Shown here: positions 1-6,312 of the stretch, one piece after another
Layout of the letters: every line of letters starts with the position of its first letter
How positions within the stretch are numbered: the first letter of the stretch is position 1
Assembly (NCBI GenBank): GCA_903813345.2
Contig: CAIIXF020000001.1
Location: 2,728,001-2,792,000, forward strand
Length of the DNA: 64,000 nucleotides
Direction: 5' to 3'
Source of the DNA: Owenia fusiformis
Lineage: Eukaryota
Notes under the pieces: model-generated
Databases searched by the model: none
What the model was told of the DNA's origin: nothing
The model's input: the letters and a program-made list of their open reading frames with translations, nothing else
Translations under genes and position numbers: made by a program

Positions 1-3000
1 AGTTTCTAGGACAGCAACATGTTTTCTGAAAGCATGCTCCTCCGTTGAGACATACACCTCTGTCAGGGCATTCTCTATCAGAACTAGGCGGGGTCTCCTT
101 TACTGTGCAGTTAGCTTCTGGTCTCATCCAGCCATCAAGGCACACCTTATTGCCTGTCTGACAATCACATGTGAAGTGACCATCACAATCATTCTGAGGA
201 AGACAATAACGTTCGCAACGTTGACCATAATAATTAGGTGGACATCTTTGTACGTATCTCTCACAGTTCGTTCCTTCAAAGTTCTGGCAACAGCTACATG
301 TATAGCCTCCTATTCGTGGTGTACATGTTCCACCATTAAGACAGGGTTGACTTGCGCAATAATCAATAAACGTTTCACATCGACGTCCAGTGTAATGTTC
401 ATCACAGCAACAATTACCTTTATAGCATCTACCATACAAACAAGGAGAGTCTCTTGGGCAATCGGGGTCAGCTGGTGGAGGGATGGTCTTTATTTTACAA
501 TCCACATCGGGGTTGGTGTACCCCGGCAAGCACTCCTTGGCTCCAGTGAATGGGTTACAGGTATAATGACCTCTCTCACAATCATCGGCTGCAAGACAGT
601 ACACATTGCAAGCCGGTGGGTTGTAGTAATTTGGTGGACATTGCGGATCATATGTTTCGCAATGAGTACCAGTGTAGTCCCTCAAGCAGATGCATGTGTA
701 CCCACCGACCGTTGGACTACATGTACCTCCATTTTGACAAGGTCGGCTTACGCAATAGTCTATAAATGTTCCACATCTTGCACCAGTGTAATGTGTATTG
801 CAGCAACACGTTCGTCTATAGCATCTCCCATAAATACATGGAGAGTCAGTTGGGCAATCTGGATCATTTGGTGGAGGGAGTGTTTTTACTTTGCAGTCAT
901 TTTCAGGAACTGCATATCCAGGAAGACAAACCTTCGCCCCTGTGTTTGGATCACATGTATAATGGCCTCTGTCACAATCATCTGCAGCAAGACAGTAAAC
1001 ATTGCAAGCTGGTGGGTTGTAGTAATTGGGAGGACATTGCGGATCATATGTTTCACACCATCTCCCTGTGTAGTCTCTTGGACATGTACACGTAAACCCT
1101 CCAACAGTGGGATTGCAAGTCCCACCATTTTGGCATGGACGACTGACACAATAATCTATAAATGTTTCACATCTAACTCCAGTGTAATGTTCATTACAGC
1201 AACATGCTCGTCTGTAGCATCTTCCATAAACACATGGAGAGTCAGTTGGACAATCTGGATCAGTTGGTGGAGGGATTGTTTTTACTTTACAATCATTTTC
1301 AGGAACTGCATACCCAGGTAGACAAACCTTCGCTCCTGTGTTTGGATCACATGTATAATGGCCTCTGTCACAATCATCTGCAGCAAAACAGTACACATTA
1401 CACGCTGGTGGGTTGTAGTAATTGGGAGGACATTGCGGATCATATGTTTCACAATGTGTACCCGTGTAGTCCCTTAAGCAAGTGCATGTGTATCCACCTA
1501 CCATTGGATTACACGTACCTCCATTTTGACAAGGCTGACTTACACAATAGTCAATAAATGTTTCACATCTTACACCAGTGTAATGTTCATTACAGCAACA
1601 CGACTGTCTGTAGCATCTTCCATAAACACATGGAGAGTCAGTTGGGCAATCTGGATCAGTTGGTGGAGGAATAGTTTTGAGTTTACAATCATTTTCAGGT
1701 ACTGCATATCCAGGTAAACAAACCTTGGCTCCTGTGTTTGGGTCGCAAGTATAATGGCCTCTATCACAATCATCTGCGGCAAGACAGTATACATTGCAAG
1801 CAGGTGGATTGTAGTAATTTGGGGGACATTGCGGGTCATATGTTTCACAATGAGTGCCTGTGTAGTCCCTCAAACATGTACATGTGTAACCACCAACGAT
1901 AGGGTTGCACGTTCCGCCATTTAAACATGGTTGACTTGTACAGTAGTTGATGAACGTTTCACATCTAGTGCCAGTGTAGTGCTCGTTGCAACAACATCCA
2001 CGTCTGTAGCATCTTCCATATAGACACGGCGAGTCAGTTGGACAATCTGGATCCGACGGAGGTGGAAGAGTTTTGAGTTTACAATCGTTTTCAGGCACAG
2101 CATATCCAGGTAAACAAACCTTCGCTCCCGTGTTGGGATCACAAGTATAATGCCCTCTATCACAGTCATCTGCAGCAAGGCAGTACACATTGCAAGCTGG
2201 TGGGTTGTAGTAATTTGGAGGACATTGCGGATCATATGTTTCACAATGTGTACCAGTGTAGTCCCTCAAACATATGCATGTGTAACCACCTACCATTGGA
2301 TTACACGTGCCTCCATTCAAACAAGGTTGGCTGACACAATAGTCTATAAAGGTCTCGCATCTTACACCAGTGTAATGTTCATTACAGCAACACGCTCGTC
2401 TGTAGCATCTTCCATAAACACAAGGAGAGTCAGTTGGACAATCTGGATCATTCGGTGGAGGTAGTGTTTTTACTTTGCAGTCATTTTCAGGTACTGCATA
2501 TCCAGGTAGACAAACCTTCGCCCCTGTGTTTGGATCACATGTATAATGCCCTCTATCACAATCATCTGCGGCAAGACAGTACACATTACATGCAGGGGGA
2601 TTGTAATAATTTGGAGGACATTGTGGATCATATGTTTCGCAATGAGTACCAGTATAGTCCCTCAAGCAAGTGCATGTATACCCACCTACCATTGGATTAC
2701 ATGTGCCTCCATTTTGACAAGGTCGGCTTACGCAATAGTCAATAAATGTTTCACATCTTACACCAGTGTAATGTTCATTACAGCAACATGCTCGTCTGTA
2801 GCATCTTCCATAAACACAAGGAGTATCAGTTGGGCAATCTGGATCAGTTGGCGGGGGAACTGTTTTGAGTTTACAATCATTTTCAGGAACTGCATACCCT
2901 GGAAGACAAACCTTCGCCCCCGTGTTTGGATCACATGTATAATGCCCCCTATCACAATCATCTGCTGCAAGGCAGTACACGTTGCAAGCAGGTGGATTGT

Positions 3001-6000: not shown

Positions 6001-6312
6001 CGTTAAATTGTCAAATAACTTTCAAGTTTTGTTTTTTCAAGTACATGATTCATAATTGATTAGAATGCGTATGATAAATGTGCACGTTCTGTTTTTCTAT
6101 TTGTTTTTCTGTTTGATAACAGTAAAATTACTTTTGCATTTAATTAGAAACAATGTACTAGCATAAACAATAAAAGAAATAATATTTTTAAATAGACAAT
6201 ATAGTCTTGTTACTATCAATATAGGCCCCTTAATGGAGTCCTTAATCAATTTCTTCAATATCAAACTTACAGTTACTGCAATGAGGCATAGTAGAAACAC
6301 CGTGGACAACAT
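1..6312 (-). CDS. Multi-DSL/EGF repeat protein (Delta-like), secretory pathway; 3' end lies outside the window
   Basis: Exon 1 6312-6271 (ATG...MLSTVFLLCLIAVT|GTAAGT) splices in phase 0 to an acceptor (tttttaatAG) at 5890, completing the signal peptide MLSTVFLLCLIAVTANA. Exon 2 stays in the same frame from 5890 to position 1 (about 1963 codons; absent from the ORF track, as expected if no stop is reached). DSL1 reads CEKHHFGPSCEVYCKPVDDKKLGHYLCHPITGEKVCRNGFAEPETNC, followed by EGFs such as [33 protein letters not shown]. DSL starts fall near 5780, 5390, 4995 and then every 396 bp down to ~243, giving 15. Confidence 0.9.
240..5000 (-). repeat. Coding tandem repeat, 396-bp (132-codon) unit = DSL+EGF+EGF
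   Basis: The anchor ggaggacattgcggatcatatgtttc (and variants) recurs at ~633, 1029, 1425, 1821, 2217, 2613, 3009, 3405, 3801, 4197, 4593 and 4989, an exact 396-bp spacing. Confidence 0.95.

Follow-up and report, generated by a model that had tools for sequence, protein, structure and literature searches.

Possession of a DSL domain is treated as the mark of a Notch ligand, and annotation pipelines label every protein that carries the domain 'Delta-like'. A locus in the annelid Owenia fusiformis raises the question of whether such a label still holds when the domain is repeated in tandem at least 15 times. The locus lies at the left edge of a 64,000-nucleotide stretch of contig CAIIXF020000001.1, the whole of which was analyzed and is referred to here as the window, and consists of a stop-free frame of 1963 codons on the minus strand that is still open at the window's left edge (Table 1). 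The GC content of this giant exon is 44%, as against 31-40% across most of the remaining window. The first-pass annotation had reported an intron-free stretch of at least 5.9 kb and, ahead of the first DSL, an acidic linker of about 35 residues; the stretch is indeed a single open frame, and the 36 residues ahead of the first DSL, read directly, include eight Asp/Glu and no Lys/Arg. Two plus-strand open reading frames of 439 and 380 residues lie opposite the array, and with no Pfam match to either, they were taken as antisense artefacts.

Table 1 Features of the Owenia fusiformis DSL array, in window positions
Feature	Position	Strand	Description or basis
Putative exon 1 (signal peptide)	6271..6363	-	Sequence reading and hydropathy window
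Putative intron	5891..6270	-	380 nt, phase 0; GTAAGT ... T-rich tract and AG
Giant exon	2..5890	-	ORF reading; 1963 codons, 5889 nt without stop
ANA signal-peptide end and acidic linker	5783..5890	-	Residues 1-36, read directly
Module 1	5390..5782	-	Six-Cys DSL (loop KPVDDKKLGH), short linker, EGF with C-V-C, EGF; 18 Cys
Module 2	4997..5389	-	Divergent, 51% identical to module 4; seven-Cys DSL, CCC-EGF, EGF; 21 Cys
Core array, modules 3-13	641..4996	-	132 aa (396 nt) each
Module 14	245..640	-	76% identical to module 4; 21 Cys
Module 15	2..244	-	Ends at window edge after 81 aa

The Pfam DSL family (PF01414) matches 15 stretches of the translated frame (E = 1.9e-52), EGF matches 14 and hEGF 13. 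The first cysteines of the DSLs fall at frame residues 37, 168, 299, 431 and so forth to 1883, i.e., with a period of 131-132 residues, and Tandem Repeats Finder reports a 396-nt period (11.8 copies, 83% matches over 322..4997). Each module is laid out as a DSL, a proline-rich linker and two EGFs, the last module being cut by the window edge. This bears out the first-pass description of 15 DSLs on a 132-residue period, each followed by two EGFs, and the accompanying claim that a C2/MNNL domain is lacking, since no MNNL/C2 family is among the Pfam matches at E ≤ 0.01; only 36 residues precede the first DSL.

Modules 3-13 are 89-97% identical to module 4 at the protein level and 78-93% identical among themselves at the DNA level, and these 11 near-identical modules make up the longest such run among the proteins compared. 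A core module comprises a DSL with seven cysteines, a K-x-K-T-x-PPP-x-DPD linker, an EGF with a CCC motif (CCC-EGF), and a second EGF with CxNGGTC and CxSxPC motifs; over the array, the second EGFs carry 14 CxxxxS/TC and 13 CxSxP/AC motifs. The linker is present in modules 3-14 and is about 12 residues long, compared with 4-5 in canonical Jagged examples. Cysteine makes up 15.2% of the core, proline 12.3%, threonine 9.2% and tyrosine 8.7%, and the net charge is about -4.8 per module. Compared pairwise (66 pairs), modules 3-14 differ on average by 0.069 in dN and 1.19 in dS, with a median dN/dS of 0.044. Purifying selection on the modules is strong, and the combination of low dN/dS with high dS indicates that the copies are old and that each has stayed near-constant in protein; recent homogenization is disfavored, because it would have erased the synonymous differences as well.

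Upstream of the giant exon, a signal-peptide exon is plausible from the letters and the hydropathy window. Two ATGs in the same frame could serve as its start, one at 6363 (31 codons) and one at 6312 (14 codons), with an in-frame TGA at 6381-6379 upstream of both, and its hydrophobic core scores 1.65 in a 19-residue hydropathy window. A GTAAGT donor follows directly after the exon end at 6271, and the putative acceptor TTTTTAATAG sits just ahead of 5890, where in-frame TAA and TAG stops lie directly upstream. The predicted spliced product would read ...LLCLIAVT|ANA|G, with an A-x-A cleavage motif spanning the junction. For the signal peptide of the first-pass annotation, the sequence thus offers an ATG, a donor, an acceptor and an A-N-A motif; the junction itself gains no read support: none of the reads or contigs from four runs mapped to 4600-6900 crosses 6271/5890, and depth is zero over 5986-6900 in all four. 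Contigs from run X1 span the exon over 4600-5951 at a word depth of 13-123; one runs past the acceptor into the 61 nt upstream of it, as far as 5951, and then diverges, and the X1 contigs end there with 23 loose letters that have no match in the window at up to three mismatches. Coverage of 5891-5951 makes intron retention or another structure possible. Three RNA raw-read runs from 2026 gave 3, 0 and 2 reads on the 2.3 kb at 4600-6900. The X1 coverage of the exon, together with its absence over 5986-6900, fits a transcript, X1 being RNA by guess only.

These data also bear on whether the frame might be no working gene at all and be open by chance, as a repeat array in decay or an artefact of assembly. 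Tandem arrays are easily mis-assembled, and the four runs yielded no spliced read over 4600-6900. However, 5889 nt without a stop, a dN/dS of 0.044 at a dS of about 1.2, and plus-strand frames without a family match all argue against such an origin, and the 7-22% DNA difference between units makes collapse or false expansion unlikely. Moreover, 4600-5951 is matched by the independent X1 contigs, each piece of which shows 0-10 differences. We consider this explanation scarcely credible; the locus is the 5' part of a real, selected annelid gene with at least 5.9 kb of coding sequence.

The modules carry an extra pair of cysteine features. A seventh cysteine sits in the C3-C4 loop of the DSL, and in the following EGF, CCC replaces C-x-C; both are present in 14 of the 15 modules, and both are missing from module 1 only. 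The pairing extends well beyond this array. In a set of 173 proteins in which 540 DSL domains were found, the DSLs with a recognized EGF next to them comprise 117 with both features, 11 with neither, two with the DSL cysteine only, and none with CCC only. The two discordant DSLs both come from one fragmentary gastropod model. Co-occurrence of this kind suggests an inter-domain disulfide, which on the evidence of covariation would join the seventh DSL cysteine to the middle cysteine of CCC. A structure model of a single module has a mean pLDDT of 68, and with values of 45-64 over the DSL and the first EGF it is too poor for judging the disulfide.

On a tree of the DSLs, the cysteine trait needs 14 changes (19 when the loop columns are left out), where shuffled labels need 104 on average, i.e., it is clustered, which does not imply a single clade. 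Based on these features, we define a seven-Cys DSL/CCC-EGF sub-family with named members in Annelida, Mollusca and Rotifera, at least 59 proteins being of the seven-Cys type; the window's array has both of its marks, the extra cysteine pair (14 of 15 modules) and the proline-rich linker of about 12 residues.

Does the module retain what a DSL needs to engage Notch? Canonical Delta/Delta-like and Serrate/Jagged ligands share with it the Pfam DSL, EGFs that align to EGF2-3 of DLL1, and Notch-type EGF motifs. HMMER aligns the two EGFs of the module with EGF2 and EGF3 of DLL1, with the linker at the place of EGF1; the module thus seems to be a derived DSL-EGF region of Delta-like proteins, DSL-EGF2-EGF3 with EGF1 lost. 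Where canonical ligands combine a single DSL with MNNL/C2, the array has at least 15 DSLs and no MNNL/C2, and the canonical EGF1 position is taken by the 12-residue proline-rich linker. Measured against the minimal Delta/Jagged architecture of Gazave 2017 (PMC5356439), the frame has no MNNL/C2, 15 DSLs in place of one and no conserved DSL loop; two EGFs follow each DSL, and the minimal architecture has a run of at least 7-9 with a DOS motif in EGF1-2. The DSL alone has no PDB match at E ≤ 10 (phmmer), and the ESM Atlas gives only generic EGF clusters.

The canonical loop, C-R-P-R-D-D-x-F-G-H, is present in the DLL1, Jagged and Delta-like matches, whereas modules 3-14 have C-L/F-A-A-D-D-C-D-R-G-H, with the seventh cysteine, a one-residue insertion, and loss of the R-x-R...F pattern. 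The first Arg is kept in none of the 15 modules, the second in one, and the Phe before G-H in none. Both MNNL and the canonical DSL loop have been lost. We take the missing Phe to be the equivalent of Jagged-1 F207. In the cited part of PMC3888931, the Jagged-1 F207A mutant is unable to bind Notch, and PMC6202052, in the passages drawn on here, has MNNL and DSL contacting Notch EGF12 and EGF11, respectively.

The loop bears directly on the main reading of the first-pass annotation, that the product is a soluble polyvalent Notch modulator, with DSLs that bind Notch EGFs through a changed surface and an array that clusters or blocks receptors as agonist or decoy. The homology of the DSLs is clear and there are 15 copies of them, and the very strong purifying selection to which every module is subject is consistent with a binding surface being conserved. 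The EGFs of the module align with DLL1 EGF2-3, a region needed for ligand function according to the cited passages of PMC6202052. In C. elegans, DSL proteins without the DOS motif serve as Notch ligands (PMC2504490). The published DOS consensus expression (same source) is uninformative here, having no match in the query and none in three canonical-ligand controls. On the other hand, the domain that gives the second Notch contact in the cited passages of PMC6202052, MNNL/C2, is absent; loss of the loop Phe in 15 of 15 modules and of the Args in 15 and 14 of 15 removes residues of the loop in which F207A abolishes Jagged-1 binding (PMC3888931, in the part cited); and a cysteine, probably disulfide-bonded, stands in the middle of that loop. 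A further objection is mechanical. Canonical Notch activation needs a pulling force, which soluble ligands cannot provide. We regard a modulator of this type as unlikely.

The closest relatives of the array are eight other Owenia fusiformis models (P0002, P0003, P0242, P0243, P0244, P0253, P0316 and P0383), all of which have the module type of the window's array. They were named automatically, as either 'Delta-like protein' or 'unnamed protein product'. In P0002, which contains 15-16 DSLs, 97% of the query aligns at 61% identity. In P0003, residues 580-660 are 95% identical to module 15, and residues 448-660 are 88% identical to modules 14-15 taken together. Over the N-terminal 298 residues of the window's frame, no Owenia model exceeds 50% identity, and the frame's own product is not among the models. 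Some relatives differ in what is joined to the module: an IgGFc-binding domain in P0253 and P0316, VWA in P0383, and also Thr/Ser-rich mucin-like stretches. Among the best 147 database representatives, 24 have at least five DSLs and the maximum is 12.

Outside the annelids, 'Delta-like' membrane proteins of molluscs and bdelloid rotifers (Aplysia P0269, Biomphalaria P0275, Batillaria P0071, Adineta P0122) share the seven-Cys DSL followed by CCC-EGF, so that the family ranges over annelids, molluscs and rotifers. These proteins differ from the window's array in having only 2-6 DSLs, long other regions and a C-terminal transmembrane (TM) segment, which in the mollusc relatives is preceded by a conserved FPW[WY]IPVG-type motif. 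In all, eight mollusc and rotifer relatives with the seven-Cys DSL/CCC-EGF have such a segment. The Owenia product might, by analogy, be a membrane-anchored adhesion or signaling protein with its TM segment and tail encoded in the 3' part beyond the window, which ends inside the gene. Canonical ligands have a TM segment as well; none is seen in the window or in any of the seven Owenia relatives scanned, a count that is weak evidence because several of the models are marked partial. P0003, one of the seven, runs 880 residues beyond its module-15-like part and ends without a TM segment. A membrane anchor is accordingly doubtful for the window's gene, with the caveat that a TM segment could still follow as in the mollusc and rotifer relatives, the gene's 3' end being beyond the window.

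Multi-DSL proteins as such are already known, as the first-pass annotation had cautioned with respect to novelty. Gazave 2009 (PMC2770060) gives Nematostella genes with 1-11 DSLs and Liu 2021 (PMC8166818) gives lophotrochozoan and bivalve DSL tandem repeats, in the portions of both papers used here. The window, with 15 tandem DSLs and no MNNL, has in common with these 'DSL-like' proteins that its DSLs are arranged in tandem outside the Delta/Jagged architecture, and no function is assigned to them in the portions cited. It differs in that the cnidarian and bivalve arrays are described there as DSL only, without EGF, whereas here each DSL has two EGFs and the extra cysteine pair. The cnidarian arrays sampled by us (Nematostella, Clytia, Sanderia) consist of six-Cys DSLs placed back to back. 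Our literature search found no description of annelid DSL-EGF-EGF arrays. The distinction is drawn from the published descriptions as far as they go, and there may be overlap with annelid genes included in them.

A different comparison is with secreted matrix and adhesive proteins. Sea-urchin fibropellins and mussel foot proteins such as PVFP-5 are strings of disulfide-rich EGF units. PVFP-5 (PDB code 7qab) is a weak sequence match to the EGFs of the module (E = 2e-06). These proteins are without DSL, however, and the likeness is in design only, with the Tyr-rich composition of the module noted on our side.

Taken together, we favor, with somewhat better than even confidence, a giant secreted annelid glycoprotein that acts as an extracellular scaffold or a multivalent binder and not as a membrane-tethered Notch ligand; most likely, the product is a secreted matrix or scaffold glycoprotein. 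Its tandem unit would be the seven-Cys DSL with the proline-rich linker, the CCC-EGF and the Notch-type EGF. The extra disulfide would staple the EGF back onto the DSL, so that every 132-residue unit would form a rigid bead and the array would string together 15 or more such beads, nearly identical to one another. Outside the cell, such a string may provide a scaffold in matrix, in mucus or in the lining of the tube, or it may bind a partner multivalently; its mode would not be that of a Notch ligand tethered to the membrane and driven by endocytosis. It is the domains found in the paralogues that suggest matrix or mucus. In the same vein, the evidence leans toward the earlier proposal that the DSL was co-opted as a structural or adhesive repeat, in that MNNL is absent, the loop is rewritten, the Owenia relatives scanned show no anchor, and paralogues carry IgGFc-binding, VWA and mucin-like parts; the structural role itself we infer.

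Two points weigh against the scaffold reading. Nearly complete conservation of every surface residue across 11 modules (dN/dS 0.04) would be expected more of a specific binding surface than of plain structural filler, and this keeps a receptor-binding role alive. C. elegans DSL-1 is a secreted protein. It acts as a Notch ligand (PMC2504490), and this precedent for a secreted DSL protein as a true ligand counts against a scaffold-only reading. A bolder proposal, which we hold to be quite improbable, is that the seven-Cys DSL/CCC-EGF is a new two-domain fold, stapled by a disulfide and present throughout the spiralians, that arose from the head of Notch ligands, and that each bead of the secreted Owenia arrays binds an EGF-repeat receptor, Notch or other. 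The protein would then act as a natural polyvalent clustering ligand or decoy, a soluble and matrix-bound regulator of Notch-type signaling that resembles no known ligand.

For the family, these results describe a branch of DSL proteins, found in annelids, molluscs and rotifers, in which the features needed for canonical Notch binding are lost and a separate signature has been gained. One annelid lineage has amplified this branch to arrays of at least 15 units in which the protein stayed nearly unchanged and the DNA drifted. In consequence, annotation inflates the number of 'Delta' genes counted in Spiralia, and the apparent loss of EGF1 from the module adds to the history of the ligand head. 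The array amounts to a natural experiment in the multivalent display of a DSL-type domain. Should it bind Notch, it would represent a soluble regulator of a new type; if it does not, it would provide a clean case of a signaling domain turned building block.

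The minus strand carries a single stop-free frame of 1963 codons that is still open at the left edge of the window, with a G+C content of 44% as against 31–40% across most other parts of the window. A Pfam search of this frame retrieves 15 distinct stretches of DSL (PF01414; E 1.9e-52), 14 of EGF and 13 of hEGF, and no member of the MNNL/C2 family at E ≤ 0.01. The first cysteines of the DSL domains lie at residues 37, 168, 299 and 431 and thereafter at 132-residue steps up to 1883, module 15 being truncated by the window edge after 81 residues, and Tandem Repeats Finder reports a 396-nt unit in 11.8 copies with 83% matches. 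This is in agreement with the first-pass annotation, which had read 15 DSL domains on a 132-residue period, an intron-free span of 5.9 kb and the absence of MNNL from the sequence.

In the module alignment (A1), each unit consists of a 48-residue DSL, a linker K-x-K-T-x-P-P-P-x-D-P-D and two EGF domains. Identity to module 4 is 89–97% in modules 3–13, the core array, and 45, 51, 76 and 50% in modules 1, 2, 14 and 15, respectively. The two EGFs align with EGF2 and EGF3 of DLL1 (HMMER; weak, domain i-Evalue 0.019), from which the unit looks like DSL-EGF2-EGF3 with a proline linker in place of EGF1. The second EGF contains CxxxxS/TC 14 times and CxSxP/AC 13 times, which we take to be the consensus sequences for O-fucose and O-glucose attachment in EGFs of the Notch type, and a motif scan of the window protein returned no calcium-binding motif D-x-D/N-E-C. 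In the core, which is acidic, Cys, Pro, Thr and Tyr are abundant. Modules 3, 7 and 12 share a variant second EGF, in which a common 16-residue stretch replaces GGYTCTCLRDYTGTHC; their mutual DNA identity is 88–90%, compared with 78–85% to most other modules, a possible trace of an ancient higher-order repeat spanning 4–5 modules.

The DSL loop differs from that of Notch ligands. HMMER aligns C-R-P-R-D-D-A-F-G-H of DLL1 (PDB code 4xbm) with C-L-A-A-D-D-C-D-R-G-H in the window, i.e., with one residue inserted, and all Jagged and Delta-like matches in our searches read C-R-[PS]-R-D-D-x-F-G-H. The first Arg is retained in none of the 15 modules (Lys in module 1), the second in module 2 only, and the Phe in none (Leu in module 1, Arg in modules 3–14). 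The Phe directly before G-H is presumably F207 of Jagged-1. A passage in PMC3888931 states that the Jagged-1 DSL mutant F207A "cannot bind Notch", and a section of PMC6202052 describes MNNL and DSL as jointly binding Notch with high affinity, at EGF12 and EGF11. Unlike a canonical ligand, the window protein lacks MNNL and has its DSL face rewritten around a cysteine, which makes a soluble modulator of Notch unlikely.

That cysteine has a partner feature. In 14 of the 15 modules, a seventh Cys in the DSL loop is accompanied by C-C-C in place of the usual EGF C-x-C; module 1 lacks both together and has 18 cysteines in a canonical 6+6+6 arrangement. With a model derived from the DSL domains of the window itself, 540 DSLs were located in 173 proteins, i.e., the window product, its matches and some canonical ligands. 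Where a recognised EGF comes next, 117 DSLs have both features, 11 neither, 2 the loop Cys only and none CCC only, counts that include related copies and are not independent events; the two discordant DSLs both come from a fragmentary Batillaria model (P0071). No recognised EGF follows in 338 others, several of which show CCC farther along, and the loop was unrecognised in 64 and the sixth Cys not found in 7. The contrasts within single proteins (module 1 against modules 2–15, and two modules of P0285) argue for direct pairing of the seventh DSL Cys and the CCC Cys in a putative inter-domain disulfide. The AlphaFold model of a module is poor over DSL and the first EGF (pLDDT 45–64).

Modules 3–13 differ by 7–22% in DNA and by only 3–11% in protein. 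Over the 66 pairs of modules 3–14, Nei-Gojobori estimates give a mean dN of 0.069, a mean dS of 1.19 and a median dN/dS of 0.044, and even the closest pairs have a dS of 0.4–0.7. Since gene conversion or recent amplification would have left synonymous sites alike, the array is old, and every unit is kept nearly constant by selection at the protein level; an artefact or a pseudogene is very unlikely. The LDL-receptor class A (LDLa) array elsewhere in the window, with 97% DNA identity, is in sharp contrast young or homogenised.

The best database matches are unnamed O. fusiformis models, among them P0002 (2185 aa, partial; 61% identity over 97% of the query; 15–16 DSLs), P0003 (1542 aa, automatically named "Delta-like protein"), P0242, P0243, P0244, P0253, P0316 and P0383. 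The window's own product is absent from the matches, the gene in this form is missing from the protein collection, and no Owenia model exceeds 50% identity over the N-terminal 298 residues. These matches place the window in O. fusiformis or a very close species. Module 15 is 95% identical to residues 580–660 of P0003, which goes on beyond the matching part with more DSL-EGF units, divergent in sequence, and with stretches rich in Thr and Ser, and has no hydrophobic segment at its end; this continuation is probably the best guide to the sequence left of the window. A membrane-anchored form, with a TM segment beyond the left edge as in eight mollusc and rotifer relatives that carry one C-terminally, is fairly unlikely, given that a TM-like segment was found in none of the seven Owenia relatives scanned. 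Six mollusc relatives (P0071, P0269, P0273, P0275, P0279 and P0412) have a conserved FPW[WY]IPVG... motif at the start of their C-terminal TM segment, which suggests one orthologous family of membrane proteins. Owenia relatives join the DSL module to an IgGFc-binding domain (P0253, P0316), VWA (P0383) and mucin-like stretches, parts that are characteristic of gel and matrix proteins outside the cell.

A profile of DSL, linker and first EGF (alignment A2), searched against 1.84 billion representatives, matches 861 proteins at E ≤ 0.001, 129 at 1e-10 and 24 at 1e-30; among the best 147, 24 have at least five DSLs, with a maximum of 12. The named members are of two kinds, i.e., back-to-back six-Cys DSL arrays in cnidarians (Nematostella, Clytia, Sanderia), and the seven-Cys/CCC kind in Owenia, gastropods (Pomacea, Batillaria, Aplysia, Haliotis, two Elysia, Biomphalaria, Bulinus, Candidula), one bivalve (Potamilus) and bdelloid rotifers (Adineta, Rotaria). 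The range may be wider, because many members are unnamed records. On a FastTree phylogeny of 401 DSLs (about 41–48 columns), the seven-Cys state requires 14 changes, or 19 without the loop columns, compared with 104 on average, and no fewer than 92–94, for shuffled labels; the trait is strongly clustered on the tree and is not shown as one clade.

Multi-DSL genes as such are already published, as a portion of Gazave et al. (PMC2770060) documents. Sections of Liu et al. 2021 (PMC8166818) report DSL expansion in lophotrochozoans, with tandem repeats of DSL alone in bivalves and another branch in which DSL occurs with EGF and other domains, and "DSL-like" proteins were, according to a passage in Gazave et al. 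2017 (PMC5356439), left out of their analysis. No description of annelid DSL-EGF-EGF arrays, the seven-Cys/CCC signature or the selection pattern was found in the article texts searched. The proteins as such are already public in databases under automatic names.

Immediately upstream of the giant exon, the stops TAA TAG close the frame, and the sole Met near its start would give a protein without a leader. The first-pass annotation had supplied a signal peptide from a separate first exon, the sequence features of which are present; no spliced joint at 6271/5890 was seen among the four runs aligned over 4600–6900. The predicted phase-0 product has a basic stretch, a hydrophobic core (1.65 in a 19-residue hydropathy window) and A-N-A / G, a classical type of signal cleavage motif, spanning the junction; 33 more residues follow A-N-A, and in all 36, with 8 acidic and no basic residues, precede the first DSL. 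Exon 1 and its signal peptide are a good prediction and remain a prediction. Three RNA raw-read runs contribute 3, 0 and 2 reads over 4600–6900, every one within the giant exon, and contigs of a further run (X1, RNA by guess only) cover 4600–5951 and none of 5986–6900. One X1 contig extends 61 nt past the acceptor (5891–5951) into 23 letters absent from the window, and has 10 differences in 391 nt; it may represent another allele, a paralogue, an unspliced molecule or retained intron, or another first exon.

Elsewhere in the window, the Thr-rich and Frizzled (Fz), LDLa and trypsin-type pieces together have the appearance of a single mosaic serine protease gene of the corin-like kind. The sulfotransferase frame may have an N-terminal membrane anchor, and its stem is rich in Gln, Lys and Glu. 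GC skew reaches +0.13 to +0.21 across about 8 kb (42000–50000), and G+C peaks at 45.6% at 42–44 kb, over the LDLa array.

Features of the DSL gene and of the rest of the window
Feature	Position	Strand	Details
Giant exon	5890-2	-	open at left edge
Putative exon 1, start codons	6312	-	ATG; in-frame ATG at 6363, TGA farther upstream
Putative exon 1, end and donor	6271	-	followed by GTAAGT
Acceptor	5891	-	T-rich tract and AG ending here
Modules 3, 7, 12	4601-4996, 3017-3412, 1037-1432	-	variant second EGF
Non-coding tandem repeat	16341-17054		135-148-nt unit, about 5 copies
Non-coding tandem repeat	27188-27485		81-nt unit, 3.7 copies
Thr-rich and Fz piece, LDLa arrays, trypsin-type protease piece, in that order	35869-36378, 41746-44552, 57075-57374, 61543-61974	+	
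Sulfotransferase ORF	38264-39547	-	427 codons; PF00685, E 3.8e-10
Tandem array	41746-44552	+	24 copies of a 117-nt unit, 97% identity
LDLa open frames	41876-42586, 43046-43747	+	LDL-receptor class A, 6 Pfam stretches in 236 aa

On balance, the absence of MNNL, the rewritten DSL face, the TM-less Owenia relatives, the gel- and matrix-type partner domains and the core composition tip us towards a putative secreted string of rigid, glycosylated beads, which would have its role in the matrix, mucus or tube lining outside the cell or would bind a partner multivalently. All modules are under very strong constraint, which is in keeping with a specific binding surface and counts against a role as mere filler.
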